In this document: in pieces, positions 8,623-41,123 of the stretch | Layout: each line of letters starts with the position of its first letter | Numbering within the stretch: the first letter of the stretch is position 1 | Position numbers and translations under genes: made by a program | The notes under the pieces: model-generated | Seen by the model: only the letters and a program-made list of their open reading frames with translations | What the model was told of the DNA's origin: nothing | Databases searched by the model: none | Source: Nostoc sp. | GTDB lineage: Bacteria > Cyanobacteriota > Cyanobacteriia > Cyanobacteriales > Nostocaceae | Assembly: GCA_036918135.1 (NCBI GenBank) | Contig: JBALDB010000067.1 | Span: 160,001 to 224,000 of the forward strand | DNA: 64,000 bases | Direction of reading: 5' to 3'

Positions 8623-8641
8623 ATAGGGAATATTAAGAATA

Positions 8642-8890: not shown

Positions 8891-8930
8891 TTAAATAAAA
8901 GTTGCCATTTGATGCGGCAGAAATAGTATT

Positions 8931-10139: not shown

Positions 10140-10179
10140 TAGTATTTAAAATCTCAAAACTATTATCAAGGTATATTTC

Positions 10180-11046: not shown

Positions 11047-11202
11047 AAGTAATTTTCAGTAAATTTTTAACAACTATATAAGTGAATAAATAGCTAATAT
11101 GTTAGGTATTATATAAATAGTAAAATAATCAGATAAAGTTCTCAAATCTCAAACTTTAGTTACTACTGTTTTCTAAATAAATTATTAAAGATAGTTAAAA
11201 AG

Positions 11203-24300: not shown

Positions 24301-24769
24301 GCCAAGCTACATGCTCCCAGGAGCTTTTGTATTACTACAAGCACTGCCCCTGACACCTAATGGCAAGGTTGACCGTAAAGAGCTACCTACACCTAATACA
24401 GTACGTCCCGATTTGGAAGCAGCTTACCAACCACCCCAAACCGAGGTAGAAAAAACTATTGCTAATATTTGGCAAGAAATACTGAATGTTGAGAACATAG
24501 GAATTGATGATAACTTCTTTGAACTTGGTGGTCATTCATTGCTTTTAATTCAAGTTCATAACAAATTGCGTGGAATATTTAAGAGCGATTTATCTGTTCT
24601 CGATTTATTTAGATATCCGACTATCAGCTCTTTAGTAGATTATTTTCATCAAGTCAAAAATGGAAACCCATCTTTTGGTGCAACAGATATTGTCAGTGAA
24701 AAAATTGAAGCTGGTAAAGCTCAACAGAAAAAGCGTCTTCAAAAAATGAAATCTATTGAAAATATTTAA
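18305..24769 (+). CDS. Bimodular NRPS C(DCL)-A[Ser]-T-C(LCL)-A[Thr]-T
   Basis: N-terminal KNIEDAYPLSPMQ (post-E type C); codes DVWHMSLVDK (Ser-type) and DFWNIGMVHK (Thr-type); two GGHSLL carriers. Confidence 0.95.
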   Translation: MSLKNIEDAYPLSPMQQGMLFHSIYAPNSGVYVEQMWFELHGALNVTAFSQAWQQVIKRHPVLRSACVWENLEKPLQVVCREVKFPWQELDWREIPATEQQQHLETFLQADRQHGFLLSQAPLMRFTLIRLAEQVYHFCWSHHHLLLDGWSGPNVYEEVIAYYKAFCQGENLYLAVPRPYRDYIAWLQQQDVSQAEAFWRKTLSGLTSPTQLGISSIGYQSEQQEDYKEQELKLSPTTTAALNSFVKQHQLTLNTLVQAAWALLLSRYSGEEDIVFGATVSGRPPALINAESMVGLFINTLPVRVQVNPKQELLPWLQQLFAQQVEAGQYEYAPLVDIQKWSEIPANLSLFDTIVVFENYPLDERLSQPDLNVKIKNIQVFEKTNYPITLSIIPSRELLFKIAYQQSDRFDVFSINQMLGHLQTLLEGMVANPYQRLEQLSLLTSAEQQLLEKWNNTQTEYPQEKTIHELFEAQVERTPDAVAVVFEDEQLTYSELNARANQLAHYLRTLGVKPEVLVGICVERSLWMVIGLLAILKAGGAYVPIDPSYPKQRLAFMLEDSQPRVLLTQQQLVETLPTHAAKLICIDSDWELIAQYSKQNPVCHLTLDNLAYVIYTSGSTGKPKGAMNSHRGVCNRLLWMQDTYQLTATDRVLQKTPFSFDVSVWEFFWTLITGARLVVAQPQGHRDSKYLVNIIRQQQISTIHFVPSMLQVFLEAENLENCRSLVRVMASGEALPAQLQQHFFHRLDAQLHNLYGPTEAAVDVTFWACRQHSLEENNISLQKTVAIGRPIANIQIYLLDGHLNCVPVGVTGELYIGGVGVGRGYLNRPELTAEKFIPNPFSQQPGRLYKTGDLARYLANGEIEYIGRIDHQVKIRGFRIELGEIEASITQHPAVRETVVVADAQRIVAYVVLHAEQTLAISQLRNFLESKLPSYMLPAAFVFLEALPLTPNGKIDRKALPIVGLTQLIPESYFVPPSTPIEEMLVTIWAKVLGIEKISIHENFFEVGGHSLLATRLISQIRQVFQIELPLRSVFEKPTIAELAKEIEKATKISLGIDTPNIERISRLQELPLSFAQQRLWFLANLNPNSSFYNIPAAVRLQGELNLKALQQSFNEILCRHEALRTNFQTIEGQPIAIISSATLVPLSIFDISELPANQREVQVRQQALAEAQQPFDLKSDLLLRVKLLRLSEQEHVVLFTMHHIVSDGWSIGVLVRELVALYQAFCEQQPSLLAQLPVQYVDFAAWQRQWLQKEALQSQLSYWLKQLQGAPKVLELPTDYPRPPVQTFRGATYSFELSDKLSVALNKFSQQQGATLFMTLLAAFQTLLWRYTSSEDIMVGSPIANRNRAEIEGLIGFFVNTLVLRTNFAGNPTFEELLARVREVALGAYVHQDLPFELLVEELQPQRDLSHAPLFQVMFVLQNAPMSDLKLPGITLSSLKIESDSAKFDLTLEMAETAQGLFATLEYNTDLFEESTISRMAGHLQSLLEGIVANAQRRLSELPLLTEPEQHQLLMEWNDTNSEYPQQKTIHELFEAQVERTPEAIAVVFEEEQLTYGELNARANQLAHHLQALGVKPEVLVGICVERSLWMAIGILAILKAGGAYVPLDPTYPQQRLGFILEDAQISVLLTQQHLKQNLPQHQGFIVCLDTQWQTITHQRQQNPISECTTENLAYIIYTSGSTGQPKGVLVNHSNVVRLLAATQCWYHFNQDDVWTLFHSIAFDFSVWELWGALVYGGKLVVVPYWLSRSPQEFYKLLFTQQVTILNQTPSAFSQLIHAEESLANISKLSLRKVIFGGEALQLESLRPWFERHGDQFPQLINMYGITETTVHVTYRPLTMLDLQLGSASVIGRPIADLQVYLLDEYLQPVPIGVPGEIYIGGAGVVRGYLNRPQLTPVKFIPNPFSNKPNARLYKSGDLGRYLANGDIEYLGRIDQQVKVRGFRIELGEIEALISQYPGVRETVVVPSDTQGLIAYLVPQKEQTLVINQLRGFLESKLPSYMLPGAFVLLQALPLTPNGKVDRKELPTPNTVRPDLEAAYQPPQTEVEKTIANIWQEILNVENIGIDDNFFELGGHSLLLIQVHNKLRGIFKSDLSVLDLFRYPTISSLVDYFHQVKNGNPSFGATDIVSEKIEAGKAQQKKRLQKMKSIENI

Positions 24770-25276: not shown

Positions 25277-27907
25277 ATGAAGCCAAAGCTGTTACCAAAA
25301 ATTTTCTTAGTAGTGAGTTCTATTTCGTTTTGGGGTGCAATGAGCGCTACTGCTCAAGAAATACCCAAGCAAGAGGTAGAAAGAAAGTCTGTTGCATCGG
25401 TAGTTCACAATTCCAAGTTAATCAAACAGATTCGCCAATTCTCTGAGATAGAGCATCCCAAGACAAACGCCCAAATGTTAGTGCAGTCGCCAGCACCCTC
25501 ATCAGAAATTGTGCAGGTTACAGGAGTTAAAGCTACTCCCACCGACAAAGGTGTGGAAGTGATTTTACAGACTTCCAAAAGCGCGCAACTGCGAATCACA
25601 AATCGCAGTACTGGGAATAACTTTATTGCTGATATACCTAACTCACAACTACGTCTACCTAATGGTGATGCTTTTACATTTCGTTCAGAAAAACCGCTTG
25701 CAGAAATTACTGAGATAACAGTTAGAAATCTTGATGCAAATACTATCCGGGTGACAGTGATAGGTAACACAGCACTGCCAACGGTTGAGTTATTTGATGA
25801 TGATACAGGTTTGGTTTTTGGGGTAGTATCTGCTGCAACTGCGACACAGCCACCAAACCAGCCGACGACTGAGACGAAGCCAGAGGAACCTACAGCACAG
25901 CAGGATCAACCGATTGAGTTGGTAGTGACGGGCGAGCAAGACGGCTATAACGTACCTGATGCCAGTGTGGGCACCCGAACCGACACACCTTTGCGCGATA
26001 TTCCCCAATCGATTCAGGTAGTACCGCAACAGGTGATTAAAGACCAGCAAGCAACTCGCCTCACAGAAGTGTTAAAAAATGTGCCGGGTGTTGTAGTAGG
26101 AGGTCGAAGCCCTCGCGATCCTCTCAATATCTATACTATTCGCGGCTTTAGTGCTTTTTCAGATACTCTACTCAATGGGGTACAAGACCGTTCAATCGGG
26201 AGTGTCGGGTTTGGCTCTAATGCAAATGTTGAGCGGGTTGAAGTGCTTAAAGGACCCGCTTCGGTTCTATTCGGTCAAGGCGGACTCGGCGGCGTAGTCA
26301 ATATAGTAACCAAGCAACCATTGCGCGATCCGTTCTACTCCGTGGAAGCCTCTGCTGGCAACTACAATGCCTATAACGGTGCAATTGATTTATCTGGGCC
26401 GTTGAATGACAGTAAAACGGTGTTGTATCGCCTAAATGCTTCTGCTGGAACAACCGAAAGCTTTATTGATTTCTACAATCAACAGGAATATCTAATTGCA
26501 CCTAGTATAAGCTGGCAAATTAGTGACAGAACAAAGCTGACCCTAGAAGCAAGCTATTCTCTTGCACAAGGGCCCTATGATTTTGGAATACCAGCACAGG
26601 GAAGTATACTGCCTAACCCCAATGGCGAAATTCCTCGTAATCGTTTTCTGAGTGAACCTGGTTTCAATAACGCGGCTAATGGTGCATTTCGGATTGGTTA
26701 TAACTTTGAACATCGCTTTAGCGAGAACTGGCAAGCACGGAGCGTTTTTCAGACTTCTTTGTTTCACCTGAGACGAAATATTGTGTTTCCTTTTGGATTA
26801 GAAGATGATTTGCGTACTGTAGGTAGAGGGATTGAGGATTTTGACTACGATGAAAATGCTTATAATCTTGACAATTATGTGGTCGCTAAGTTGACAACAG
26901 GTAGTATCAAGCATCAGCTAGTTGCTGGATTTAACTTGAGTAGAACTGACACTAATACTAACGATATCTACAGTGACACTACTCCTCTGGATATTTTTAA
27001 TCCTGTGTATGGAAATATTACAGAAAATTTTCTTCCAGATTATAATTACCAAAGTAGGCAGCAACAATTAGGTTTTTACATTCAAGACCAAATCACCCTA
27101 GCAGAAAACTTAAAAGTACTTTTGGGTGGGCGCTATGACATTGCCAATTCAAAGTTTAGAGATTTATTCAATCAAACAAGCGACTTTAGCCAAGCAGAAG
27201 CTTTTAGCCCCCGTGTTGGAATTGTTTACCAGCCCATTCAACCGCTCTCACTCTACGCCAGCTATAGCCGTTCATTCAATTCGGGATCGTCTGCATTTGG
27301 TGTAGGTACACCACAACCAGAGCGAGGAACGCAGTATGAAATCGGGGTTAAAGCAGATTTGAGTAACCGATTAGCTGCAACCTTGGCATTTTATGATTTG
27401 ACTCGCACAAATCTACCAACCTCAGATCCAAACGATCCTCGATTAACAATTCTAGTTGGGGAACAGCGCAGTCGTGGGATTGAATTTGATGTTTCTGGCG
27501 AAATCTTACCGGGGTGGAACATCATTGCTGGCTATGCCTACACTGATGCAGTAATTACGGAAGATAACGACTTACCAGTAGGTAATCAACTGAATAATGT
27601 GCCAAAACATGCGCTCAACCTCTGGACAACTTACGAAATTCAATCTGGCAGTTTAAAAGGATTAGGTTTCGGTCTAGGAGCCTTTTTCTACGGAGACAGG
27701 AAAGCCGACTTAGTAGATAACACGGTTGAGTTACCTAGTTATATACGCACAGATGCAGCTATTTATTATAAGCGAGACAATTACCAGGCTGCGATCAATA
27801 TCAGGAATTTATTTGACAGTGATTATTTTGTCTCTGCACAAAACCTGAATCGGATTATACCTGGCGATCCCCTGACAATTCAGGGTACAATTACCTGGCA
27901 GTTTTGA
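25277..27907 (+). CDS. TonB-dependent siderophore receptor with N-terminal AMIN domain
   Basis: Signal peptide, AMIN-like region (VTGVKATPTDKGVEVIL), TonB box IELVVTGE, plug motifs TPLRDIPQSIQVV and VERVEVLKGPASVLFG, and C-terminal outer-membrane signature TITWQF. Confidence 0.96.
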   Translation: MKPKLLPKIFLVVSSISFWGAMSATAQEIPKQEVERKSVASVVHNSKLIKQIRQFSEIEHPKTNAQMLVQSPAPSSEIVQVTGVKATPTDKGVEVILQTSKSAQLRITNRSTGNNFIADIPNSQLRLPNGDAFTFRSEKPLAEITEITVRNLDANTIRVTVIGNTALPTVELFDDDTGLVFGVVSAATATQPPNQPTTETKPEEPTAQQDQPIELVVTGEQDGYNVPDASVGTRTDTPLRDIPQSIQVVPQQVIKDQQATRLTEVLKNVPGVVVGGRSPRDPLNIYTIRGFSAFSDTLLNGVQDRSIGSVGFGSNANVERVEVLKGPASVLFGQGGLGGVVNIVTKQPLRDPFYSVEASAGNYNAYNGAIDLSGPLNDSKTVLYRLNASAGTTESFIDFYNQQEYLIAPSISWQISDRTKLTLEASYSLAQGPYDFGIPAQGSILPNPNGEIPRNRFLSEPGFNNAANGAFRIGYNFEHRFSENWQARSVFQTSLFHLRRNIVFPFGLEDDLRTVGRGIEDFDYDENAYNLDNYVVAKLTTGSIKHQLVAGFNLSRTDTNTNDIYSDTTPLDIFNPVYGNITENFLPDYNYQSRQQQLGFYIQDQITLAENLKVLLGGRYDIANSKFRDLFNQTSDFSQAEAFSPRVGIVYQPIQPLSLYASYSRSFNSGSSAFGVGTPQPERGTQYEIGVKADLSNRLAATLAFYDLTRTNLPTSDPNDPRLTILVGEQRSRGIEFDVSGEILPGWNIIAGYAYTDAVITEDNDLPVGNQLNNVPKHALNLWTTYEIQSGSLKGLGFGLGAFFYGDRKADLVDNTVELPSYIRTDAAIYYKRDNYQAAINIRNLFDSDYFVSAQNLNRIIPGDPLTIQGTITWQF

Positions 27908-28876: not shown

Positions 28877-31800
28877 ATGAGTGTTGCGATGCCTAATTCT
28901 CTGAATGGTTCAGAAATAGCAGTTATCGGCTTAACAGGGTGTTTCCCTGGAGCAAAAAATATTGATGAATTCTGGGAAAATCTCCAACAAGGTAGAGAAT
29001 CAATCTCTGTTTTTACTGACGAAGAACTGTTGTCATCAGGTATAAGTTCGTCAACATTAAATGATCCTAATTATGTAAAAGCACACGCTATATTAGAAGA
29101 CGCAGAATTATTTGACGCTTCATTCTTTGGCTTTAATCCCAGAGAAGCAGAAATTACCGATCCCCAGCATCGAATTTTTCTAGAGTGTGCTTGGTCAGCT
29201 TTGGAAAGTGCTGGATACGATTCGCAAACTTATAAAGGTGCTATTGGTGTTTATGGTGGCTCTAGTTTGAGCAGCTACTTACTTAATATTTATCTAAATC
29301 AAAATATTATAAATTCTATCGATCCTCAACAACTGACAATAGCAGCTAATAAAGATTATTTAACTACTCGCGTTTCTTACAAACTCAATTTAGAAGGGCC
29401 AAGTTACGCAGTGCAAACTGCCTGCTCAACTTCATTAGTTGCTGTTCACTTAGCTATCATGAGCTTGCTCAATGGCGAATGTGACATTGCTTTAGCTGGT
29501 GGTGTTGCTATTAATGCAGAAAGAAAAGCTGGATATATGTATACAGAAGGAGGAATAGCGTCTCCTGACGGACATTGCCGTACCTTTGATGCTAAGGCAA
29601 AAGGGTCTGTAGGCGGTGAGGGTGTGGGCATTGTAGTGTTGAAGCGATTAGAAGATGCTTTAAACGATCGCGATCGCATTCATGCTGTAATCAAAGGATC
29701 GGCAATTAATAACGATGGTTCATTCAAGGTAAGCTACACAGCACCCCGCATCGATACTCAAGCAAAGGTGATTAGAACAGCCCAAATCGTAGCTGAAGTA
29801 GAACCTGAGACAATTACTTACATTGAAGCTCACGGTACAGCAACAGTCTTAGGAGATCCCATCGAAATTGCCGCCCTGACACAAGCTTTTCGCTCTAGTA
29901 CCCAAAAGAAAGGATTCTGCGCCATTGGTTCGGTTAAAACCAATATTGGGCATTTGGATACTGCGGCTGGTGTAACGGGACTTATCAAAACCGTTCTAGC
30001 CCTCAAGCACAAACAAATACCACCCAGCTTACACTTTGAGCAACCTAATCCGGAAATTGACTTTGCTAATAGTCCCTTTTACGTCAATACTACACTTGCC
30101 CAATGGCAGACGCATGGCACACCTCGACGTGCAGGAGTTAGTTCTTTTGGACTTGGAGGAACCAATGCCCATGTAATTCTTGAAGAAGCCCCAATTGTTG
30201 AACCTTCCAGTTCCTCTCGGACTTGGCAGTTGTTGATGTTATCTGCCAAAACAAGTTCAGCACTGGAAACGGCTACCACAAATCTAGCTAATTACTTCCA
30301 AGAGCATCCCGATTTAAACCTCGCGGATGTAGCTTATACATTACAAATTGGGCGCAGAGCTTTTGAGCATCGGCGCACAGTTGTCTGCCGAGATATTCAA
30401 GATGCTATCGACGCACTTCAAGATTCCAAACGAGTTCTCACCAGTACTCACAAAACTCAGGAACGCTCTGTTGCTTTCATGTTTTCTGGACTGGGAACCC
30501 ACTACGTTGATATGGGTCTCGAACTTTACCAAACTGAGCCAACATTTCGTGGCTGTGTTGACCAATGCTGCGAACTTCTCAAATCCCACCTAAGTCTGGA
30601 TTTGCGAGATATTCTGTATCCCAATAGAAACAGTGAGAATGGAAATAAATCAAATACTCTCTCTGGTGGGCTAGATTTGCGAAAAATGCTCGGTCGAACA
30701 ACGCAACCAGCAGATGTAGCCACGCAAAAACTCAATCAAACCGTTTATACCCAACCAGCTCTGTTCGTGATTGAATACGCTTTAGCTCAATTGTGGATAT
30801 CCTGGGGAATTCGTCCTACGGCAATGATTGGCTATAGCATCGGTGAATATGTCGCAGCAACTCTAGCAGAAGTTTTATCTTTGGAAGACGCTTTAACCTT
30901 GGTAGCTAAAAGAGCGCAAATGATTCAACAGTTGCCTGAAGGAGCAATGTTGGCAATTGGGCTTTCGGAAGCGGAAATACAGCCTTTGTTAAATGAAAAG
31001 ATTTCTTTATCTGCAATTAACGGCTCATCATTATGTGTGATTGCAGGTGCTACCGATGCTATTGAGGAAGTAGAACGACGGTTGAGTGAAAGAGGTTTAA
31101 TTGGTAAACGTTTACAGAGTTCTCATGCTTTTCATTCTGTGATGATGGAAGCGATCGCACCTAGCTTTTATAATTTAGTTCAAACATTCACTCTCAAACC
31201 GCCAACAATTCCTTATTTATCCAACGTTACCGGAACTTGGATTACAGCAGACCAAGCAACAGATCCGAGTTATTGGGTACAGCACCTCTGTCAAGCAGTA
31301 CGCTTTGCTTCGGGAGTGCAACAATTATCGCAAAAAGATAATCCGATTTTATTAGAAGTTGGCCCCGGTCAGGCATTGAGCAGTTTCGCACTGCAATGTC
31401 TAGAAAATGAGGATAGAACAACATCGGTGATATTGCCTTCCCTGCGGCATTCTTACGAGCAACAATCAGATGTTGCATTTTTAATCAATACATTGGGTCG
31501 CCTGTGGTTGGCTGGGGTAAAAGTAGACTGGTCTGGTTTTTATACCCACGAAGAACGCGGTCGCATTCCCTTACCGACGTATCCTTTTGAACGTCAGCGT
31601 TACTGGATAGATGCTAACCCTGAAGCTAATTTGGCAACGCCACTACAGAAAAAAACTAATATTACCGACTGGTTTTATATGCCCTCCTGGAAACGCTCTC
31701 CACAGATAACAGCAAAACCAGCACAAAAGTTATGTAATTTAGTATTTATTGATACTAATTGTATAGGTTCAGAAATTGTCAAACAGTTGGAATTACAAGG

Positions 31801-34800
31801 ACATGATGTCATTACTGTGACTGTTGGAGAACAGTTTACACAACTGGGGCAACGCCGTTACGCAATTAATCCCCAAACAAGTAGTGACTATGATACTTTG
31901 CTCAAAGAACTTGATTCATTGGATTTAAACCCAAATGTCATTAGCCATTTTTGGAGTCTCATCCCTAACGCCCAAGGAAAATTAACTCATCAGTTCTTTG
32001 AAGAATGCCAAAATAATGGATTTTATAGTTTACTTTTCCTCGCACAAGCCTTAGGAAGACAAGAAGTTACCGATAATATCCAAATTCTAGTTGTTAGCGA
32101 CAATGTGCAAGAGGTAAACGGTGACGAAAAGTTATGCCCCGAAAAGGCGACTGTCATCGGACTGTGTAAGGTGATTCCCCAAGAGTATCCCCATATTACC
32201 TGTCGTAACATTGATGTGGTGATTCCATCAGGGACATACCAAGAAAATCAACTCATAGACCAACTCTTAGCAGAACTCACCCATCAGCCATCTGAAAATA
32301 TGGTTGCCTATCGTGGCAAACATCGTTGGGTGCAAACTTTTGAACCAATACAACTCCAACAACCAGATGAGCAAACAATTCTCCTCACAGAAGGAGGAGT
32401 ATATTTAATTACTGGTGGTCTAGGAGATATTGGCTTGGTACTAGCAGAATATCTGGCTCAAACAGCGCGTGCCAAACTGATTCTTACAGGGCGTTCTGGT
32501 CTGCCAGCAAAACAAGATTGGTCTCAATGGTTGGCAACTCACGATCGTAGCGATAAAATCAGTTGCCAAATCCAGAAAGTACAAGCATTAGAAGCATTGG
32601 GTGCGGAAGTTTTGATTTGCCGTGCCGATGTTGCCAATCTCCAACAAATGCAAACAGTAATCACTGAAGCATTAAACCGCTTTGGTCAAATCCATGGGGT
32701 AATCCATGCAGCAGGGATAAAGTTATTTAGTACTGTTCAACAAATAAGTAAAACTGAGTGTGAAAGTCAATTCAGTTCCACAGGTTATGGATTATTTGTA
32801 TTAGAAAATATCTTACAAGGAAAAGAGCTAGATTTTTGCGTAGTCATATCCTCATTAGCATCTGTTTTGGGGGTAATGGGCATGGCTGCCTATCCAGCAG
32901 CGCACATATTTACTGATGCTTTTGTACATAAATATAACCAAACAAGCCTTTTCCCGTGGCTGAGCATTAATTATGGCGATTGGATTACTCAAGAATCCTC
33001 ACAATCAATAACCTTATTCAAAGGTGGGGATTCGATAATGTCAAGGCAAGAAGGACTGGAGGTTTTTAAACGTGCCTTATCTCTAAATAAATTTACTCAG
33101 ATAGTTACATCTACAGTAGATTTGCAAACTAGTATTAACAGATGGATTAAACTTGAATTTAGTCAAACTCAAGCACAAAAAGCCAGCTCTGCTTCACTTC
33201 ATTTAAGACCTAATTTAGATAGTGATTATGTTGCTCCGAGAAACGAACTAGAGCAAACCATTGCCAACATCTGGCAAGAACTCCTGGGTATTGAACTCAT
33301 AGGCATTCACGATAACTTTTTTGAATTAGGGGGAGATTCTGTTCTCGGCATTCAAGTTAGTGCTAGAGCGGCTAAAGCAGGTTATCGACTTGCTCCTCAA
33401 CAATTATTTGAACACCAAACGATTGCCGAACTAGCAGAGGTAACAAACACAAAACAAGTTGTCCAAGCAGAGCAAGGCTTAGTAACTGGTTCGCTGCCTC
33501 TAACACCTATCCAGCATTGGTTCTTTGAACAAAATTTACCAGAACCGCATCACTGGAACATGGCATTCTTTGTAGAGGTAATGCAAGTTATCGATCCGGC
33601 TTTATTGGAACAGGCATGGCAGTATTTATTCATACACCACGATGCACTTCGGCTGCGGTTTATCCCCTCTGAATCTGGTTGGCAGGAGGTGAATAGTGGC
33701 TTGGAAGAAGTAAATTTGATACATAAAGATTTATCGGCATTGTCAGCTGAGATGCAAAAATCTTCTATGGAAGCGATCGCCACCCAACTACAAGCTAGTT
33801 TAAACCTGTCAGAGGGGCCAATTGTCCGGGGTGTACTTTTTAATTTGGGTGTCAACTCCTCAAGCCGCTTGTTGATTATCATCCATCACTTGGCAGTGGA
33901 TTTCGGCTCGTGGCGAATCTTACTAGAGGATCTTGAAACTGCTTATCAACAGCTTAGCCAAGGTAAAGCGATTCAACTGCCACAGAAAACCACCTCTTTT
34001 AAACAGTGGTCTCAACGATTAAAGGAATACGCTAACTGTGAAAAGTTGCACAAAACGTTAAATTCCTGCCTTAGCGAACGTTACAACCAAGTTTATCCCT
34101 TACCGATAGATTATCCTGGAGGCATTAACAATGTAGCATCAGACCAAACTGTTTCAGTAGGATTAACCGAAACTGAAACTCAAGCATTACTTCAGGAGGT
34201 TTTAGCAGTCTATCGAACTAATACCCAAGAAGTTTTATTGACCGCTCTTGTGGAGACTTTTAAACAATGGACAGGCAGAAAATGGCTACTGTTTAATACT
34301 GAAGAAGATCCGCGAGACGCAAATATTACTATAGATAATGTGGATATATCAAGAACAGTAGGTTGGCTGACTACTCTTTATCCTGTGCTGTTGGATTTAG
34401 AAGGCGCTGAGAATCTAGGGGATGCATTGAAAACTGTGAAAGAGCAGTTTCGTGACATTTCTAGTAGAACCATCGATCGGGGAGTGCTACGCTACTTGAG
34501 TGAGGATACAACACTTACAGAGAAAATGCGATCGCTTCCCGAAGCAGAAGTGTTTTTTCTCTATCTTGGTCAGTTTGGTAAAAGCTTCGACCGTTCTTCT
34601 ATGCTCAGACCGACTGAAGAATCCACTGGGTCATTGTACAGTTCCTTTGGAACTAGTCCCCATTTGCTAGGTATAACTGCATGGGTTAATGAAGAAGGTC
34701 AGTTAAGACTAGAATTTGGCTATAGCAAAAATGTGCATCGACGCCAGACTATAGAGAAACTAGCTCAGAGTTTTGTGGAAGTACTCAAATCTTTAATCGC

Positions 34801-34906
34801 CTACTGTCGCTCCCTTGATGCAGTGGAGTATACTCCTTCAGACTTTTCGGCAGCAAATATCAATCAAGAAAATTTGAGTAGCCTGCTGGCTCAGATTAGT
34901 CAGTGA
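28877..34906 (+). CDS. PKS module KS-AT-KR*-ACP fused to an NRPS-type epimerisation domain
   Basis: KS TACSTS/HGTAT/NIGHL; AT GYSIG/HAFH; KR GGLGDIG but with YPAAH; carrier GGDSV; E-like domain PLTPIQHWFF, HHLAVDFGSW, RTVGWLT, YTPSDF tail. Confidence 0.93.
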   Translation: MSVAMPNSLNGSEIAVIGLTGCFPGAKNIDEFWENLQQGRESISVFTDEELLSSGISSSTLNDPNYVKAHAILEDAELFDASFFGFNPREAEITDPQHRIFLECAWSALESAGYDSQTYKGAIGVYGGSSLSSYLLNIYLNQNIINSIDPQQLTIAANKDYLTTRVSYKLNLEGPSYAVQTACSTSLVAVHLAIMSLLNGECDIALAGGVAINAERKAGYMYTEGGIASPDGHCRTFDAKAKGSVGGEGVGIVVLKRLEDALNDRDRIHAVIKGSAINNDGSFKVSYTAPRIDTQAKVIRTAQIVAEVEPETITYIEAHGTATVLGDPIEIAALTQAFRSSTQKKGFCAIGSVKTNIGHLDTAAGVTGLIKTVLALKHKQIPPSLHFEQPNPEIDFANSPFYVNTTLAQWQTHGTPRRAGVSSFGLGGTNAHVILEEAPIVEPSSSSRTWQLLMLSAKTSSALETATTNLANYFQEHPDLNLADVAYTLQIGRRAFEHRRTVVCRDIQDAIDALQDSKRVLTSTHKTQERSVAFMFSGLGTHYVDMGLELYQTEPTFRGCVDQCCELLKSHLSLDLRDILYPNRNSENGNKSNTLSGGLDLRKMLGRTTQPADVATQKLNQTVYTQPALFVIEYALAQLWISWGIRPTAMIGYSIGEYVAATLAEVLSLEDALTLVAKRAQMIQQLPEGAMLAIGLSEAEIQPLLNEKISLSAINGSSLCVIAGATDAIEEVERRLSERGLIGKRLQSSHAFHSVMMEAIAPSFYNLVQTFTLKPPTIPYLSNVTGTWITADQATDPSYWVQHLCQAVRFASGVQQLSQKDNPILLEVGPGQALSSFALQCLENEDRTTSVILPSLRHSYEQQSDVAFLINTLGRLWLAGVKVDWSGFYTHEERGRIPLPTYPFERQRYWIDANPEANLATPLQKKTNITDWFYMPSWKRSPQITAKPAQKLCNLVFIDTNCIGSEIVKQLELQGHDVITVTVGEQFTQLGQRRYAINPQTSSDYDTLLKELDSLDLNPNVISHFWSLIPNAQGKLTHQFFEECQNNGFYSLLFLAQALGRQEVTDNIQILVVSDNVQEVNGDEKLCPEKATVIGLCKVIPQEYPHITCRNIDVVIPSGTYQENQLIDQLLAELTHQPSENMVAYRGKHRWVQTFEPIQLQQPDEQTILLTEGGVYLITGGLGDIGLVLAEYLAQTARAKLILTGRSGLPAKQDWSQWLATHDRSDKISCQIQKVQALEALGAEVLICRADVANLQQMQTVITEALNRFGQIHGVIHAAGIKLFSTVQQISKTECESQFSSTGYGLFVLENILQGKELDFCVVISSLASVLGVMGMAAYPAAHIFTDAFVHKYNQTSLFPWLSINYGDWITQESSQSITLFKGGDSIMSRQEGLEVFKRALSLNKFTQIVTSTVDLQTSINRWIKLEFSQTQAQKASSASLHLRPNLDSDYVAPRNELEQTIANIWQELLGIELIGIHDNFFELGGDSVLGIQVSARAAKAGYRLAPQQLFEHQTIAELAEVTNTKQVVQAEQGLVTGSLPLTPIQHWFFEQNLPEPHHWNMAFFVEVMQVIDPALLEQAWQYLFIHHDALRLRFIPSESGWQEVNSGLEEVNLIHKDLSALSAEMQKSSMEAIATQLQASLNLSEGPIVRGVLFNLGVNSSSRLLIIIHHLAVDFGSWRILLEDLETAYQQLSQGKAIQLPQKTTSFKQWSQRLKEYANCEKLHKTLNSCLSERYNQVYPLPIDYPGGINNVASDQTVSVGLTETETQALLQEVLAVYRTNTQEVLLTALVETFKQWTGRKWLLFNTEEDPRDANITIDNVDISRTVGWLTTLYPVLLDLEGAENLGDALKTVKEQFRDISSRTIDRGVLRYLSEDTTLTEKMRSLPEAEVFFLYLGQFGKSFDRSSMLRPTEESTGSLYSSFGTSPHLLGITAWVNEEGQLRLEFGYSKNVHRRQTIEKLAQSFVEVLKSLIAYCRSLDAVEYTPSDFSAANINQENLSSLLAQISQ

Positions 34907-34928: not shown

Positions 34929-37900
34929 ATGAATCAAAAGAATATTGAAGATATATATGAACTTTCACCCTTACAGCAGGGTATGCTTTTTCACACGCTG
35001 GTTGCACCAGATTCGGGAGTGTATTTTGAGCAGTTTTGCTACTCTTTAAAAACTCAAATTGATGTTCCAGCTTTTGAGAAAGCTTGGCAACGAGTTTTAA
35101 ACCGACATCCGATTTTGCGTACTTCCTTCTACTGGGAAAATCTTGATAAACCATATCAAGTGGTATATCGACAAGTAGATTTGCCTTGGGATTTTCAAGA
35201 CTGGCGTCAGATGTCTTTGCCAGAAACAGAAAAGCAATTAGAAGTTTTTTTAGCAGCAGATCGCAAACGAGGCTTTACACTTTCTGAGGTTCCACTCATC
35301 CGTTTGACATTAATTCAGGTGGCTGACGACACTTATCAATTTGTTTTCAGCTTTCACCATATATTGATGGAAGGGTGGTCTTTAACATGGCTATGGAAAG
35401 AATTCTATGAATTCTATAATGCCTTTTGCAAAGGTGAGGATTTAGACCTGGAATATCCTCGTCCCTTTAAAGAATACATTTCCTGGCTACAGCAGCAAGA
35501 TATCTCAAAGGCTGAAATTTACTGGCGCGAGATGCTTAGAGGATTTACAGTACCGACACCACTAATGATGGACAAAGGTGGCGGTACTTTCTCTAGCGAA
35601 GAGGAAAACCATGATTGTCAACAAACCCTACTCTCTCTAACAACGACAGATGCCTTGAATTCTCTGGCGCGAAAGTATCACCTGACCCTAAACATCCTAC
35701 TCAAGGGGGCTTGGGCTATACTTTTGAGTCGCTATAGCGGTGAGTCAGATATAGTTTTTGGAGCTACATCTTCAGGCAGACCTACGGAATTGGCAGAAGC
35801 AGAGTCGATGATGGGACTTTTCGCCAATACATTGCCACTACGGGTAGAAGTAGATAGTGATGCTTTGCTGATACCTTGGTTGAAAAAGCTGCAAATTCAA
35901 GAAGTAGAAATGCGTCAGTATGAGTATAGTCCACTGATGCAGATTCAACAATGGAGTCAAATCCCTCGTGGATTGCCATTATTTGAAAGTCTTTTAGTTT
36001 TTAATAACTATTTAGTAGATGATACTAATGAAAAGCTAGCTCAAAGCTTGGTTATAGGCGAAGCTCGGATATTTGAAAAGACAAATTATCCTCTTACCCT
36101 CCAGGTATATCCTGGTTCAGATTTATTACTATCAATTGCCTATGATACTCGTCGTTTTGATAGTGCGACGATTAATCAGATAATAGGGCATTTAAAGACT
36201 TTGCTAGAAAGTATAGTTGCTAATCCCGAACAACAACTTCGAGACTTGTCGTTACTGACTGCACAAGAAAAATATCAATTGCTCCAGGAGTGGAATAATA
36301 CAGAAATTGAGTATGCTCAAGAAAAGTGCATTCATCAGTTATTTGAAGCGCAAGTAGAACGCACACCTAATGCAGTCGCAGTGGTATTTCAAGATGAAGA
36401 GTTAACTTATGGTCAACTAAACACCAAAGCCAACCAATTAGCGCATTATTTACGTTCATTGGGAGTAAAACCAGATGTATTAGTCGGGATTTGTGTAGAG
36501 CGATCGCTCGATATGATTATCGGACTATTAGCTATCCTCAAAGCAGGTGGTGCTTATGTGCCGTTAGATCCAGCATACCCCCAAGAACGCTTAACTTTTA
36601 TGTTGGCAGATGCTCAAGTGCCAGTGCTGCTGACTCAACAACAATTACTAGAAAAACTGCCAAATTCTGGCGCATCGATAGTTTGCCTGGATACAGATTG
36701 GCAGATAATTCAAATGGCAAGCGACCAGAATCTCCCAACAGCTTTCTCGCCGGAGAACTTAGCATATACAATCTACACTTCTGGCTCCACAGGTAAGCCA
36801 AAGGGAGTAATGGTCAGTCATGGTAACGTTGTCAATTTCTTTACAGGAATGGACAGTAGGATTGGCAGCGATCGCCCAGGTACTTGGCTAGCAGTTACTA
36901 GCATTTCCTTTGATATCTCAGTGTTAGAGTTGCTGTGGACGCTGACACGCGGTTTTGAAGTTGTAATTAATGGTGATTTCAGACGTGCTATTACTACTGA
37001 AGTAGATCGAATCACAGATAAAGAAATGGCATTTAGCCTTTTCTATTTTGCAAGTGACGAGCTACAGGCAGGCACAAATAAGTATCAGTTATTACTTGAA
37101 GGTGCTAAGTTTGCTGATAAACACGGCTTTGCAGCCATCTGGACTCCAGAGCGACACTTTCATGAATTTGGCGGTCTATACCCAAATCCCTCCGTTGTCA
37201 GTGCAGCGATCGCCACAATTACAGAGCAAATTCAAATTCGTGCTGGTAGTATTGTTTTACCGTTACAAAACCCGATCCGAGTTGCTGAAGAATGGTCTGT
37301 AGTTGATAACCTTTCCGGAGGCAGAGTTGGTATCTCCTTTGCTTCTGGTTGGCACGCCGATGATTTTGTCTTAGCACCAGAAAAGTATAGCGATCGTTTC
37401 CAAATCATGTTTCGTGACATCGAAACTGTCCGCCAACTCTGGCGGGGAGAATCGATAACCCTACCAGCAGGTAGCGGCAAAGAAGTAGAAGTGAAGATTC
37501 ATCCGCAACCGATTCAGCCGCAAGTACCGATTTGGGTTACAGCTGCTGGTAGCCCGGAAACTTTTCGTAAGGCGGGTGAAATTGGTGCCAACTTGCTTAC
37601 CCATTTACTCGGTCAAAATCTAGAGGAACTAGAGGAAAAAATTGCGATTTATCGTCAATCCTGGCAGGAACACGGTCATGTGGGAGCAGGTCAGGTGACG
37701 CTGATGATTCACACCTTTGTGGGTGAGGACATTGATATTGTGCGAGAAAAGGTGCGGCAACCTTTCTGCGATTACTTGAAAAGTTCTCTGAGTTTGTGGA
37801 AGAACTTAGCAAAAAGTTTAGGTGAGGATATTGATGTAGATAACTTTAGCGCACAAGAGCAAGAGCAATTGCTGAATTACGCTTTCAATCGTTACTTTGA

Positions 37901-39365
37901 AACGAGTAGTTTGTTAGGCACACCCAGCACTTGCTTGCAGATGATTAATCGACTCAAGGCTATAGGGGTGGATGAGGTTGCATGTCTGATTGATTTTGGC
38001 GTGGATGTGGAATCTGTGTTGTCTAGTTTACATCATCTAAATACAGTCAGAGAATTGAGCAACAAAAAAATAGATAAAAATGACACTAGCAACACCGACT
38101 ATTCCCTAGCTGCTGAAATTGCCAGACACAATGTCACACATCTGCAATGCACTCCCTCTCTAGCAAGAATGTTAATTCAAGATAATAAAGCGTTGAGTGC
38201 GATGGGTTCGCTCCGTAAATTGATGCTTGGTGGTGAGGCGTTACCGATTTCTCTAGCAGAACAGTTGCGTACTCAACTCTCGGCAGAAATTCATAATATG
38301 TACGGGCCCACGGAAACAACTATTTGGTCTACAAGCTATAACCTCAAAGAAGTCAGCAATACAGTACCAATCGGACGCCCGATTGCCAACACAGAAATTT
38401 ACATTCTCGATCGCCATTTACAACCAGTACCTATTGGAATTCCTGGTGAACTCTACATTGGCGGTAAAGGTGTGGTGCGTGGCTACTTAAACCAACCACA
38501 GTTAACCCTAGAGCGTTTCATCTCTAATCCGTTTAGCACAAACCCAAACAACAAACTCTATAAAACTGGAGACTTAGCACAATATTTACCAAACGGTAAT
38601 ATCGAGTTTCTCGGTCGTGTAGATCATCAAGTGAAATTCCAGGGATATCGCATCGAGTTAAGCGAGATAGAAACTGTCTTGAGTCAATATCCGGCGGTAA
38701 TGGAAGCTGTTGTTGTCGCCAGAGAGGAGCAACCAGGAAACAAACGCCTAGTAGCCTATATTGTTCCAACACAACAAGCACAAGACATCACATTTACACC
38801 AAAAACGCAACTGTTGACCGACGAGCAAATAATAGCAAAACCCACCTTTTCAATCGGCGACTTACGAGCGTTTATCAAAGAAAGGTTACCTGAGTATATG
38901 GTACCCTCGACCTTTGTAACCCTCAACGCCCTACCTCTAACACCCAATGGTAAAATAGACCGCAATGCATTACCTGCACCAGAAACTTTCAGACCAGAAT
39001 TAGAAGTATCTTATGTAGCGCCAAAGACCGAAGTTGAAAAAGTGATTGCATCTATTTGGCAAGAATTACTTCAGGTAGAAAAAGTGGGAATCCATGATAA
39101 TTTCTTTGAACTTGGTGGTCATTCATTGCTGTTAATTCAAGTTACTAGCAGGTTGCAAAAAGTATTTCAACGAGATTTTACCTTGGTTGATATATTTCAA
39201 TATCCAACTATCAGTAACTTGGTTAAATATTTTAGTCAGCAATCGAGCGAAGAAACATCTGTTTCCCGACCTACTCATCATCCAGAGAATAGAACAGCTT
39301 CAGTACAAAGGCGAAAACAAGTTAGGAAAGAGCGGCGGGCAGCAACCAAGGAAAAAGATTTTTAG
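34929..39365 (+). CDS. NRPS C-A[Gly](embedded luciferase-like monooxygenase)-T
   Basis: Post-E type C with HHILMEG; code DILQMGMIWK (Gly-type); LLM insert of about 350 aa (FSLFYF, WTPERHFHEFGG, RVAEEWSVVDNLSGGR) between A4 and A5; T GGHSLL. Confidence 0.94.
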   Translation: MNQKNIEDIYELSPLQQGMLFHTLVAPDSGVYFEQFCYSLKTQIDVPAFEKAWQRVLNRHPILRTSFYWENLDKPYQVVYRQVDLPWDFQDWRQMSLPETEKQLEVFLAADRKRGFTLSEVPLIRLTLIQVADDTYQFVFSFHHILMEGWSLTWLWKEFYEFYNAFCKGEDLDLEYPRPFKEYISWLQQQDISKAEIYWREMLRGFTVPTPLMMDKGGGTFSSEEENHDCQQTLLSLTTTDALNSLARKYHLTLNILLKGAWAILLSRYSGESDIVFGATSSGRPTELAEAESMMGLFANTLPLRVEVDSDALLIPWLKKLQIQEVEMRQYEYSPLMQIQQWSQIPRGLPLFESLLVFNNYLVDDTNEKLAQSLVIGEARIFEKTNYPLTLQVYPGSDLLLSIAYDTRRFDSATINQIIGHLKTLLESIVANPEQQLRDLSLLTAQEKYQLLQEWNNTEIEYAQEKCIHQLFEAQVERTPNAVAVVFQDEELTYGQLNTKANQLAHYLRSLGVKPDVLVGICVERSLDMIIGLLAILKAGGAYVPLDPAYPQERLTFMLADAQVPVLLTQQQLLEKLPNSGASIVCLDTDWQIIQMASDQNLPTAFSPENLAYTIYTSGSTGKPKGVMVSHGNVVNFFTGMDSRIGSDRPGTWLAVTSISFDISVLELLWTLTRGFEVVINGDFRRAITTEVDRITDKEMAFSLFYFASDELQAGTNKYQLLLEGAKFADKHGFAAIWTPERHFHEFGGLYPNPSVVSAAIATITEQIQIRAGSIVLPLQNPIRVAEEWSVVDNLSGGRVGISFASGWHADDFVLAPEKYSDRFQIMFRDIETVRQLWRGESITLPAGSGKEVEVKIHPQPIQPQVPIWVTAAGSPETFRKAGEIGANLLTHLLGQNLEELEEKIAIYRQSWQEHGHVGAGQVTLMIHTFVGEDIDIVREKVRQPFCDYLKSSLSLWKNLAKSLGEDIDVDNFSAQEQEQLLNYAFNRYFETSSLLGTPSTCLQMINRLKAIGVDEVACLIDFGVDVESVLSSLHHLNTVRELSNKKIDKNDTSNTDYSLAAEIARHNVTHLQCTPSLARMLIQDNKALSAMGSLRKLMLGGEALPISLAEQLRTQLSAEIHNMYGPTETTIWSTSYNLKEVSNTVPIGRPIANTEIYILDRHLQPVPIGIPGELYIGGKGVVRGYLNQPQLTLERFISNPFSTNPNNKLYKTGDLAQYLPNGNIEFLGRVDHQVKFQGYRIELSEIETVLSQYPAVMEAVVVAREEQPGNKRLVAYIVPTQQAQDITFTPKTQLLTDEQIIAKPTFSIGDLRAFIKERLPEYMVPSTFVTLNALPLTPNGKIDRNALPAPETFRPELEVSYVAPKTEVEKVIASIWQELLQVEKVGIHDNFFELGGHSLLLIQVTSRLQKVFQRDFTLVDIFQYPTISNLVKYFSQQSSEETSVSRPTHHPENRTASVQRRKQVRKERRAATKEKDF

Positions 39366-39482
39366 TGTCAGCAAAGCGATCGCTCGAATCTTAATGACCT
39401 GTAGAATCGAATATTTTAGAGTTAAGCAGGCGTCATAATATTCTTACCGCAAAAACAAATTAAAAAAATATTGCAACCCAAT

Positions 39483-41123
39483 ATGACATCAAGCAAACAA
39501 GAAATGCTAAATAAAAATTCCTTTTTTGAATCTGAGCAAACATTCGATAATGGAATTGAAGAACAAGTAATGCAATTGTTTGCTTTATCCAATCAAGCGA
39601 CGTCTATCGAAAAACAAATCGATGAAATAACTGATAGCTGGTCGCAAGATTTTTTAAACACTATCGATTCTAATACCAATATTGATTTAGAGTTACTAAT
39701 AGAAAAATTTAGTGATAGTAAGATTCCCGTTCAACCTATCAATTTTGAGAACTATCTCAAATACATAGGTAACAATGTTGTTGCTCATTCAATACATACA
39801 TCTTCGCCACGATTTATTGGTCACATGACCTCGGCACTTCCTAGTTTTGTACGCCCTTTGGCTAAACTGATGACGGCAATGAACCAAAATGCCGTCAAAA
39901 TAGAAACAGCGAAAGCCCTAAGCTTTTGCGAACGCGAAGCTTTGGCTATGTTGCATAGACAAATTTATAATTTTTCTGATAATTTTTATACTCAACATAT
40001 TCAAAACAATTTGAGTACACTGGGAATTTTGGTTTCTGGTGGAACAGTGGCAAATATCACAGCAGTGTGGTGTGCGCGAAATGCTTCACTAGGCCCGAAA
40101 GATGGATTTCTTGGTGTAGAAAAAGAAGGTTTAGCAGCTGCTTTAGATTTCTATGGTTATAAAGGAGCAGTAATTATTGGCTCTGATTTGATGCATTTTT
40201 CTTTTGATAAAGCTGCGGATTTAATGGGCATTGGTACGAATAGTTTGATTAGAATTCCCGCTGACCGTAATAATCGAGTTGATATACAAGCACTGCGTCA
40301 AACTGTTGTCAACTGTCAAGCCAAAAACTTGCTGATTATTGCAATTGTCGGAGTTGCTGGAACAACAGACTCAGGTGGGGTTGATTCCCTAATAGATATC
40401 GCAGAAATTGCACACCAAGCCAATGCTCATTTTCATGTAGATGCTGCTTGGGGTGGGCCGCTAATTTTTTCTGAGCAATATCGACATAAGCTTGCTGGTA
40501 TAGAAAGAGCTGATTCAGTCACTATTGATGGACACAAACAACTATATCTACCAATGGGTATTGGTATGGTCTTTTTTAGCAATCCACAATTGGCTGGAGC
40601 GATCGAAAAACAGGCTAGTTATACCATGCGTAAGGGGTCGTTTGATTTAGGTAAACGTGCTTTAGAAGGTTCTCGGCCAGGCATGGCTTTATTTTTACAT
40701 GCCGGTTTAAAGCTGATTGGAGTTAAGGGATATGAGTTTTTGATTAATGAAGGAATCCGAAAAACTCAATACATGGCTGCTTGTATTTCAGCTATGCCTG
40801 AATTTGAATTGCTGACAGAACCCGATACTAATCTATTAATTTATCGCTATATTCCAAAACAATTTAGAAGAGTGCATAGTAAAAACAAATTGGCAGATAT
40901 AGATAATCAAATTATCAATAATTTTAATGAATGTTTACAAAAGCATCAGCGTCAAATTGGTCATACTTTCATTTCACGAACGACAAAAAAAGATATGAAG
41001 TTTGGCAGTGAAACTCCGATAGTTGCTATGCGGGCAGTGATTGCCAATCCTTTAACCACAGAAGAAGATATTCGCGCAGTTTTAAATGAGCAGATCCAAA
41101 TAGCTGCCCAAATTCAAATTTAA
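39483..41123 (+). CDS. Group II PLP-dependent decarboxylase, PanP-like aspartate 1-decarboxylase (beta-alanine supply)
   Basis: SPRFIGHMTSALP, SGGTVAN, HFHVDAAWGG, DSVTIDGHKQLY (PLP Lys), EGSRPG. ATG at 39483 preferred over TTG at 39471. Confidence 0.85.
   Translation: MTSSKQEMLNKNSFFESEQTFDNGIEEQVMQLFALSNQATSIEKQIDEITDSWSQDFLNTIDSNTNIDLELLIEKFSDSKIPVQPINFENYLKYIGNNVVAHSIHTSSPRFIGHMTSALPSFVRPLAKLMTAMNQNAVKIETAKALSFCEREALAMLHRQIYNFSDNFYTQHIQNNLSTLGILVSGGTVANITAVWCARNASLGPKDGFLGVEKEGLAAALDFYGYKGAVIIGSDLMHFSFDKAADLMGIGTNSLIRIPADRNNRVDIQALRQTVVNCQAKNLLIIAIVGVAGTTDSGGVDSLIDIAEIAHQANAHFHVDAAWGGPLIFSEQYRHKLAGIERADSVTIDGHKQLYLPMGIGMVFFSNPQLAGAIEKQASYTMRKGSFDLGKRALEGSRPGMALFLHAGLKLIGVKGYEFLINEGIRKTQYMAACISAMPEFELLTEPDTNLLIYRYIPKQFRRVHSKNKLADIDNQIINNFNECLQKHQRQIGHTFISRTTKKDMKFGSETPIVAMRAVIANPLTTEEDIRAVLNEQIQIAAQIQI

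Follow-up and report, generated by a model that had tools for sequence, protein, structure and literature searches.

The window analysed here, a stretch of 64,000 nucleotides of Nostoc sp. DNA, carries on its plus strand a PKS gene (28877–34906) that encodes, in a single ORF of 2009 aa, the domains KS-AT-KR*-carrier-E*, where KR* denotes an altered KR and E* the E-like domain under study. Pfam recognised KS, AT, KR, PP-binding (aa 1460–1521) and Condensation (aa 1538–1994) in this ORF, which confirmed the claim of an earlier, sequence-only reading that an E-like domain lies behind a KS-AT(GYS)-KR-carrier module. The KS (28913–30040) is intact for Cys-His-His (TACS, HGTAT, GHL), and the AT (30476–31477) has GYSIG at 30830–30844 together with HAFH. 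In KR* (32396–32983) Tyr1339 is kept, the catalytic Lys is replaced by Thr1302 and the Asn by His1343 (YPAAH). The carrier (33254–33439) is chimeric, with Ser1488 in a GGDSV motif (33329–33343), and E* (33488–34903) ends in a COM-like tail (TPSDF...). Within E*, HHLAVDFG (33884–33907) retains His1671 and Asp1675, with Gly-Val changed to Phe-Gly; TEEDPRD (34298–34318) retains Glu1809 and Arg1813, with Gly-His changed to Glu-Asp; and FLYLGQ (34556–34573) retains Tyr1896, with the Asn of FNYLG changed to Leu1895 (nt 34559–34561), a swap that appears to be a convergent marker of PKS-fused E domains.

The neighbouring genes lie on the same strand. A hydroxymalonyl-ACP-type cassette (7768–12270) consists of a 3-hydroxyacyl dehydrogenase, a small ACP-like ORF (8642–8890), an acyl-CoA dehydrogenase and FkbH, with a JmjC gene inside. 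It is followed by an NRPS of C-A(MT)-T-E order (12306–18290), whose canonical E (HHLVVDGV, LEGHGRE, FNYLGQ) served as the control within the window, and by the donor NRPS C-A-T-C-A-T (18305–24769), which has no E, ends in a docking-type tail and shows signatures that are, by eye, Ser-like and then Thr-like. An AMIN-plug-barrel TonB-dependent receptor (25277–27907) within the cluster suggests a metallophore product, judging by the available text of bioRxiv 10.64898/2026.07.30.741596. Downstream of the PKS gene, the acceptor NRPS C-A-T (34929–39365) has a luciferase-like monooxygenase inserted in its A domain, whose signature is Gly-like by eye, and a DCL-type C, 53% identical to the DCL of the window versus 27–28% to its three LCL domains. 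The motif of this acceptor C is HHILMEG (35355–35375), with Glu in place of Asp.

E* and the canonical E of NRPS 12306–18290 share 50% identity, and the top PDB sequence matches of E* were E-domain proteins without exception. Its AlphaFold model (pLDDT 87.9) came closest to E-domain structures (TM 0.83–0.89, versus about 0.7 for C domains). In a tree, the kind of check proposed in the earlier reading, E* nested among E domains, with cyanobacterial NRPS E domains as sister rows. In alignments with the E domains of PvdL and TycB3, their His is matched by His1671, in an HHxxxD motif that keeps the catalytic second His, and their Glu by Glu1809, so that the claim of a retained catalytic pair held; in TycA E, both His743 and Glu882 are required, according to the available text of PMC8905534. 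The loss of catalytic residues seen in X domains is absent from E*, in which His, Asp, Glu and Arg are all kept. The core motifs EGHGRE and FNYLG are incomplete, with EEDPRD and FLYLG instead. As to the altered surroundings reported earlier, the change from DGVS to DFGS is real, whereas the difference between HHLAVD and HHLVVD falls within normal variation; the replacement of FNYLGQ by FLYLGQ, the most diagnostic of the changes, had been overlooked, as had the altered KR.

Ahead of its Ser, the carrier resembles PKS ACPs (mean identity 0.72, versus 0.57 to E-type PCPs), whereas behind it the resemblance is to E-type PCPs (0.54 versus 0.13). Its dN/dS was 0.00–0.03 in the 12 closest pairs. GGDSV had been described as an E-associated carrier motif, but GGDS by itself does not identify such a carrier: GGDSL occurs in each of the window's four plain PKS ACPs. 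E* is a genuine NRPS epimerisation-type domain joined, with half its carrier, behind a PKS module, and not behind an A-T module like the canonical E. It shares with canonical NRPS E domains (TycA 2XHG/9BFG, GrsA 5ISX, TycB3 6TA8, PvdL 9LCO-9LCQ, BacC 9RDE) the fold, HHxxxD, the Glu and Arg of EGHGRE, the Tyr of FNYLG, the E-type carrier half, the COM-like tail and the DCL partner, with 60 of 75 conserved columns kept. It differs in that the tethered unit is a ketide without an alpha-amino centre, and in that its whole family has other residues in place of the Gly that follows Asp, the EGHGRE His and the FNYLG Asn.

This family is not a one-off, as a search for further PKS-fused E proteins found 109 cyanobacterial members, which were compared with 474 NRPS E controls. 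His and Arg are present in 109/109 and Glu in 104/109 (Asp in the other 5). In contrast, the Gly after Asp occurs in 0/109 PKS-fused E domains versus 385/474 NRPS E domains, and the His of EGHGRE in 0/109 versus 463/474. The Asn of FNYLG is likewise found in 0/109, Leu taking its place in 106/109 versus 0/474. As these kin are not independent, the 109 domains represent approximately one origin. Cultured strains with a cluster of this type include Nostoc sp. NIES-3756, Nostoc sp. PCC 7107 and Scytonema hofmanni UTEX 2349. On a tree spanning about 11 substitutions per site, the slowest 12% of E* sites included the His, Asp, Glu and Arg, and dN/dS of E* was 0.18–0.26, versus 0.22 in the canonical E of a sister cluster. 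PKS-fused E domains are under purifying selection comparable to that on normal E. Random decay is rejected by the conserved columns, the slow catalytic sites and the dN/dS, and these, with the fixed and specific changes, favour the neofunctionalisation put forward earlier. Elsewhere, 15 of 18 E-like rows without Glu retain His, so that the Glu is the more telling of the two, and E* has retained it. NRPS E domains preceded by Gly, intended as a relaxed-selection control, amounted to just 5 rows, too few for this use. The search of 401 genomes scored three candidates per genome, from which no frequency can be derived, and the 50%-representative search was dominated by NRPSs with several E domains, its chief use being to provide the control set. 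A search of the ESM Atlas returned generic condensation clusters only, and cluster look-ups for family members found no characterised gene name.

More distant PKS-fused E domains have Leu for Asn in 12/12 cases and keep both His and Glu in 12/12; in one further domain (L058) the His is gone and Ser stands where the others have Leu. The Asn-to-Leu change is the sole column that the distant set and the cyanobacterial clade share against NRPS E. In all 12 loci checked the Leu codon is CTN, two changes away from Asn. A shared local segment was tested as the source of the Leu, and no segment with raised similarity was found. A single clade of PKS-fused E domains was rejected by AU tests (p=0.044, then p=0.0046) made on quickly built, long-branched trees for which the nearest NRPS neighbours had been chosen by hand. 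This rejection suggests that the swap arose convergently in separate PKS-E fusions. With the catalytic pair kept, and an amino-acid swap common to distant, apparently independent fusions, E* is likely still catalytic.

The KR changes together with E*. At Tyr+4, the position of the catalytic Asn, His is found in 66 of the 76 modules that an E follows and in none of the 48 other modules, and two near-identical PKS modules of one locus (P0373) differ exactly in this pairing of E and KR-His. The Tyr-Ser-Lys-Asn tetrad, incomplete in KR*, is said in the available text of PMC5331325 to mark all reductase-active KRs. Canonical Asn is retained in 8 of the 76 E-followed KRs (3 of them in Herpetosiphon-type rows), and these 8 may reduce the ketone ahead of E*. 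Two family members have no KR at all and an intact E*, which fits a 3-oxo substrate.

The sequence-only reading had proposed that the domain epimerises the hydroxymalonyl C2. From the GYS motif of the AT, as in the carrier-fed ATs ZmaA and ZmaF (PMC4207774, in its available text), we infer loading with hydroxymalonyl-ACP; the second motif is HAFH, as in malonyl-CoA ATs, and not the GAAH of ZmaA. Across the family, 68 of the 101 members with a readable AT are of malonyl type (GHS/HAFH), with a CH2 at C2 and no stereocentre there, so C2 epimerisation cannot be the family function. Nearly all GYS members fall in one derived subclade, with its own extra change, Gly to Glu, beside the catalytic Glu. 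The proposal is thus unsupported for the domain type, and C2 epimerisation is possible as a secondary role within the GYS subclade. A 288-aa TauD-type dioxygenase gene directly precedes many malonyl-type members. It was not found in 2 of the 5 malonyl-type genomes tested, it also adjoins TonB/PepSY uptake genes without a nearby PKS (G384, G694), and the hydroxymalonyl cluster described here has a homologue of its own; these findings weaken TauD as supplier of a C2 hydroxyl.

We tentatively propose, at somewhat less than even confidence, that E* would instead invert the amino-acid-derived C4 of a 3-oxo-4-amido-acyl chain. The KS would extend a Thr-ended peptidyl chain with hydroxymalonyl to give a 2-hydroxy-3-oxo-4-amido-acyl thioester. 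The C4 hydrogen, alpha to the ketone, would be abstracted and returned on the opposite face by Glu1809/His1671, the register being shifted by one ketide unit through a reshaped pocket (Gly-Val to Phe-Gly, His to Asp, Asn to Leu). The altered KR would await or select the inverted isomer, or would have stopped reducing, and the DCL domain would accept the resulting D-like gamma-amino unit. Of the 31 loci whose donor signature could be read, 29 offer a C4 centre; the 2 others (L021, L055) have Gly-like donors, no C4 centre and an intact E*, which counts against the proposal. Donor modules lack an E in 33/33 loci, which is probably common at NRPS-to-PKS junctions and was hence not counted as support. 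A DCL-type C with a COM-like N-terminal start follows nearly every member, and in one (P0128) the C after E* appears LCL-type by eye. In the myxoprincomide synthetase MxpA of Myxococcus xanthus, a PKS module is reportedly followed by a 'gamma-D-peptide element', perhaps including an E domain; should this hold, it would be a direct precedent for the C4 reading. To our knowledge, there is no product or assay for any PKS-fused E member.

E* could also be a non-catalytic adaptor, the docking scaffold of the earlier reading, which we keep as a rival and regard as unlikely. A T-E/DCL junction would have been captured by recombination at the carrier Ser, joining PKS to NRPS; E* would give the COM tail and the E-C interface, and the Asn-to-Leu change may silence a harmful acid-base site. 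The carrier switch at GGDS, the DCL-type C behind nearly all members and the persistence of E* behind Gly-like donors agree with this, as do known cross-module E-C structures (9LCP, 9RDE), a dN/dS of E* slightly higher than that of KS, AT and KR, and the inactive E retained by LgrA (available text of PMC10510592). However, an adaptor leaves the co-varying KR unexplained, as well as the Glu, kept in 104/109 and 12/12 while other degenerate E-like domains lose it. There are many routes to silencing, yet the same CTN-encoded Leu recurs, and PKS-to-LCL junctions in this window (50576–55249 to 56272) work without an E. Rather improbable in our view is an E-derived dehydratase, in which Glu would take the C2 proton of a KR-made 3-hydroxy thioester and His would assist the departure of water; the product would be a vinylogous amino acid or, where a hydroxymalonyl module provides a 2,3-diol, a 2-oxo acid. 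It would need no register shift, is compatible with Gly donors and canonical KRs, and would suit the finding of a DH Pfam domain in none of the full-length members; thioester C2 deprotonation is native E chemistry (PMC8905534) and dehydrating C-family domains are known in AmbE and NocB (PMC10510592), by the available text of both. An active KR is required, but KR* is without the tetrad Lys and Asn, and the two KR-less members keep E* intact.

The C2 epimerase of the earlier reading, which would act on a hydroxyl-bearing carbon supplied by hydroxymalonyl here and by a trans-acting hydroxylase in malonyl-type members, seems to us about as improbable as the dehydratase. The GYS AT and FkbH cassette of the window, the additional Gly-to-Glu change of the GYS subclade and the TauD-type gene ahead of many malonyl-type members speak for it, and C2 is the native position of attack. 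The malonyl-type majority, the derived position of the GYS group and the distribution of TauD stand against it, as do the distant Leu-bearing members, malonyl-type in every case with a readable AT. A 2-hydroxy-3-oxo thioester is moreover expected to be configurationally labile, which counts against the same reading. Finally, KR*, E* and a C of HHxxxEG type might together perform another carrier-bound reaction, such as keto-enediol isomerisation, an acyl shift, or the protection of a 3-oxo thioester against release by cyclisation. Changes in the three domains go hand in hand, the Glu-for-Asp of the acceptor C being found in 12 of the 14 closest loci and again in the distant P0373 and L174; however, no particular reaction is indicated and most malonyl-type members have a normal HHxxxDG acceptor, and we hold this to be very doubtful.

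Known systems share parts of the arrangement, as far as the available texts describe them. The zwittermicin ZmaA hydroxymalonyl module (PMC4207774) has the GYS AT and FkbH-type cassette in common; for its C2 stereochemistry, that text considers a role of the KR, or that the (2S) isomer is taken up, and no E domain. Redox-inactive epimerising (C2-type) PKS KRs (PMC5331325) are the known route of epimerisation within a PKS module, and KR* keeps Tyr, without Lys and Asn; unlike KR*-E*, they act on C2-methyl centres without an E domain. X domains and the dehydrating C domains of AmbE/NocB (PMC8949500, PMC10510592) re-use the C/E fold for docking or new chemistry, but X domains are without the catalytic motif and AmbE/NocB are condensation domains, whereas E* is E-derived with both catalytic residues. 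Cyanochelin clusters (PMC12628792; bioRxiv 2026.07.24.740629) are likewise FAAL-started cyanobacterial NRPS/PKS siderophore lines with AMIN-TonB receptors and D-Lys and beta-Ala modules; their E domains sit in NRPS modules, and the cyanochelin B plasmid gave a carrier-E match only, with no KR-carrier-E match. Aranazole, kasumigamide, lusichelin, fischerazole and cyanochelin, considered as matching systems, did not fit by their available texts. Among the matches listed in full-text literature, a scope that covers neither subscription papers nor supplements, no description of a KS-AT-KR-ACP-E module was found.

For the family at large, we give an even chance to the view that PKS modules acquired E domains repeatedly, in cyanobacteria as well as elsewhere among bacteria, and that on every occasion one Asn-to-Leu switch, aided by a re-tuned KR, yielded a ketide-acting enzyme (gamma-epimerase or E-derived dehydratase). 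Such an enzyme would be a type of PKS tailoring domain that has escaped recognition and is marked by a single residue, in widespread uncharacterised cyanobacterial metallophore lines. Genome-mining tools and chemists rely on E domains to assign stereochemistry, but dismiss as noise any E that follows a PKS module. Even if only an adaptor, E* would illustrate how PKS and NRPS are joined time and again in nature. If the subclass is active, the products of more than 100 hybrid lines are predicted wrongly at present and would contain D-configured gamma-amino (statine-type) or vinylogous units. The Asn-to-Leu swap offers a one-residue test of substrate change in the C family, and might also serve for engineering the gamma centre of amino-acid-ketide units.

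The open reading frame at 28877–34906 (forward strand) encodes 2009 residues with KS, AT, KR, carrier and condensation-family domains; the stretch 33250–34906 is its end. The last domain (hereafter the PKS-E domain) is an E domain by every available test: it shares 50% identity with the canonical E domain of the NRPS at 12306–18290, the ten top matches of a PDB sequence search all contain E domains, and its confident structural model (pLDDT 87.9, built from 86 sequences) matches E-domain structures best. His1671 and Glu1809 align with the TycA His/Glu pair, described as essential in PMC8905534. The motifs quoted by the sequence-only reading, among them GGDSV of the carrier and HHLAVDFG and TEEDPRD for canonical HHLVVDGV and LEGHGRE, were all found in place. 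Two changes had escaped it: FLYLG for FNYLG (Leu1895), and an altered KR in the same protein, in which the catalytic Lys has become Thr and the Asn has become His. By motif and by substrate the domain fails as a canonical E; it is a variant of the family which probably works like an E. In GrsA, mutagenesis reportedly pointed to positions with His, Asp, Tyr, Glu and Arg, all retained here.

A total of 628 distinct E-like domains emerged from protein searches (two), a scan of genomes and genome sampling; 474 lie behind an A domain and 116 behind PKS domains, with 38 unlabelled and left out. Removal from the 116 of six tandem degenerate domains (proteins P0023, P0130, P0228) and of locus L058 left 109 PKS-fused domains. 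After 90% dereplication, 64 formed one clade (support 0.918; 97.7 and 89 in other trees), adjoining cyanobacterial NRPS E domains; a mixture model with 10 rows gave no resolution. His, Asp and Arg of the catalytic motifs were present in 109/109 and Glu in 104/109 (Asp in 5). In contrast, the Gly after Asp was found in 0/109, versus 385/474 NRPS E domains, and the His of EGHGRE in 0/109 versus 463/474, whereas Leu replaced the Asn of FNYLG in 106/109 versus 0/474. The family retains 60 of 75 canonical E columns, the four catalytic-motif sites rank in the slowest 12% (tree of 11 substitutions per site), and dN/dS of the window's domain is 0.18–0.26 against 14 homologues (canonical control in a sister cluster, 0.22, one usable pair). 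Random decay among homologues, which the sequence-only reading had named as speaking against it, is ruled out by the retained residues, slow sites and dN/dS. The PKS-fused feature is real, conserved and recurrent. His alone proves little, because 15 of 18 other E-like rows without Glu keep it; in these alignments the retained Glu is the telling residue.

Three NRPS E domains nearest the clade (L062, L064, L100) already carry Asn or Asp where EGHGRE has His, which may represent a precursor state. In a separate group (P0023, P0130, P0228; P0047, P0067), KR-ACP or a carrier is followed by E-like domains in tandem, two or three in number; most of these lack the catalytic Glu. One cluster (L168:6440–21902) has two hydroxymalonyl-type (GYS) PKS-E modules in series flanking a single NRPS module.

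The KR-carrier-E order was also found in seven long hybrid proteins (7/13 rows lacking a preceding A domain; the other six are ordinary NRPS E) and in five metagenome loci of 52–64% GC (5/15 KR-preceded rows; the other ten are of the cyanobacterial type). In 12/12 of these distant rows His and Glu were kept and Asn was replaced by Leu; the His of EGHGRE was also kept. No segment placed them nearer to the cyanobacterial clade than NRPS E domains are to them, and Leu was the sole diagnostic column that they had in common with this clade. A single clade of all PKS-fused domains was rejected by AU tests (p=0.044 with the seven; p=0.0046 with the twelve, trait columns removed). Since these tests used quick trees, long branches and chosen neighbours, several origins of PKS-fused E domains with Leu are likely rather than proven. 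Exceptions are L058, with His lost and Ser in place of Leu/Asn, and Herpetosiphon-type rows, with Asn kept in 5/6 and Glu absent in all.

The KR changes go together with the E domain. His at Tyr+4 occurred in 66/76 E-followed modules versus 0/48 others, and the Lys was retained in 17/76 versus 47/48; of two near-identical modules in P0373, solely the E-followed one had the altered KR. Two members lack a KR. According to PMC5331325, Tyr, Ser, Lys and Asn are present in KRs with reductase activity, and by this rule the window's KR may be non-reducing; it is conserved despite its changes (dN/dS 0.12–0.19, 13 pairs). The carrier before the PKS-E domain is a chimera, PKS-ACP-like until the Ser and E-type-PCP-like after it (window and 37 family carriers), and the following C domain is of DCL type (53% identity to the window's DCL versus 27–28% to its three LCL domains). 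The simplest history would be capture of a T-E/DCL junction by recombination at GGDS. At 35355–35375 this DCL domain reads HHILMEG, with Glu replacing a structural Asp, as conserved behind hydroxymalonyl-type PKS-E modules: the motif was found in 12/14 closest loci (L014 canonical, L007 unread), and P0373 and L174 have the same Glu.

The first gene of the cluster lies outside the window and was assigned from its motifs as FAAL-carrier-C-A-T (G000 C67:156417, same contig); just upstream of the cluster is a tandem duplicate (153291–155832, two adjacent ORFs sharing their first 50 residues). Next come a GYS PKS module that includes a methyltransferase and a cassette of hydroxymalonyl type, then the NRPS units C-A(MT)-T-E and C-A-T-C-A-T. 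An AMIN-TonB receptor precedes the PKS-E gene, behind which lie C-A(monooxygenase)-T and an aspartate decarboxylase of PanP type. Three malonyl-type PKS modules come after these, followed by C-A-T-TE and two P450s. A-domain signatures, compared by eye with known codes, read as Ala-like, Lys-like, Ser, Thr, Gly and beta-Ala; from these, the donor and acceptor of the PKS-E module would be Thr and Gly. A metallophore is suggested by the receptor (bioRxiv 10.64898/2026.07.30.741596); the cluster could be matched to no product. The GYS module at 1806–7655 (KS-AT-MT-KR-ACP, KS motif HGSGT) could O-methylate its hydroxymalonyl unit through the in-line methyltransferase, and in the NRPS of 12306–18290 a methyltransferase splits the Lys-like A domain that the canonical E follows. 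A luciferase-like monooxygenase, inserted mid-line rather than terminally in the Gly-like A domain of 34929–39365, could hydroxylate the Gly C-alpha, giving an N-acyl aminal or chain cleavage; the unit recurs in L001, L002, L004, L007 and L009, other A domains replacing it in sister clusters. The third malonyl module (50576–55249) has a KR whose motif for NADPH binding is broken (FFGGLESIE) and whose Lys position holds Gln, likely leaving a ketone ahead of the beta-Ala module. The decarboxylase (39471–41123, TIGR03799 above cut-off) pairs with the beta-Ala-like terminal A domain of 56272–60366. This end block with two P450s is also present in genomes G394, behind an ordinary NRPS T-E/DCL junction, and G662.

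The sequence-only reading had proposed neofunctionalisation, for instance epimerisation of the hydroxyl-bearing C2 of a hydroxymalonyl unit. Among 101 members with readable ATs, 33 are GYS, all except one in a derived subclade (support 0.986), and 68 are malonyl-type (GHS/HAFH) with no methyltransferase motif by regex; malonyl C2 is CH2, therefore there is nothing to epimerise. A 288-aa TauD-type gene upstream of many malonyl-type members could in principle supply the hydroxyl, but it was not found in 2/5 malonyl-type genomes tested, also adjoins uptake genes without PKS, and has a homologue in the window's own cluster. We consider the C2 reading improbable. The TauD-type family (window 63244–64000, G000 C67:223244–224113; L039:4513–5379), present in 8/401 sampled genomes, has 23–26% identity to SyrP-type hydroxylases; its position just ahead of many PKS-E genes is fixed, yet it also lies next to TonB/PepSY genes.

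We tentatively favour, at somewhat less than even chances, epimerisation of C4, the carbon that was alpha in the donor amino acid. A domain bearing an acid-base pair is retained and reshaped each time an E ends up behind a ketide. C4 would be acidic as long as C3 is a ketone, and would be epimerised ahead of, or in place of, KR reduction, with a register shift; this would account for the co-varying KR, for the members that lack a KR and for the partner being of DCL type. Donors are chiral in 29/31 loci with a readable signature, so nearly all members have a C4 centre, but the two Gly donors are unexplained. Myxoprincomide reportedly contains a gamma-D element that follows a PKS module. A pure adaptor, akin to the docking scaffold also entertained earlier, is unlikely; dehydration is about as improbable as C2 epimerisation, and some other chemistry less probable still.

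What this analysis brings out is the probably convergent Leu, the link to the KR and the arguments that tell against C2 epimerisation. If the PKS-fused domains had instead a single ancient origin, this would be an equal argument for retained function.
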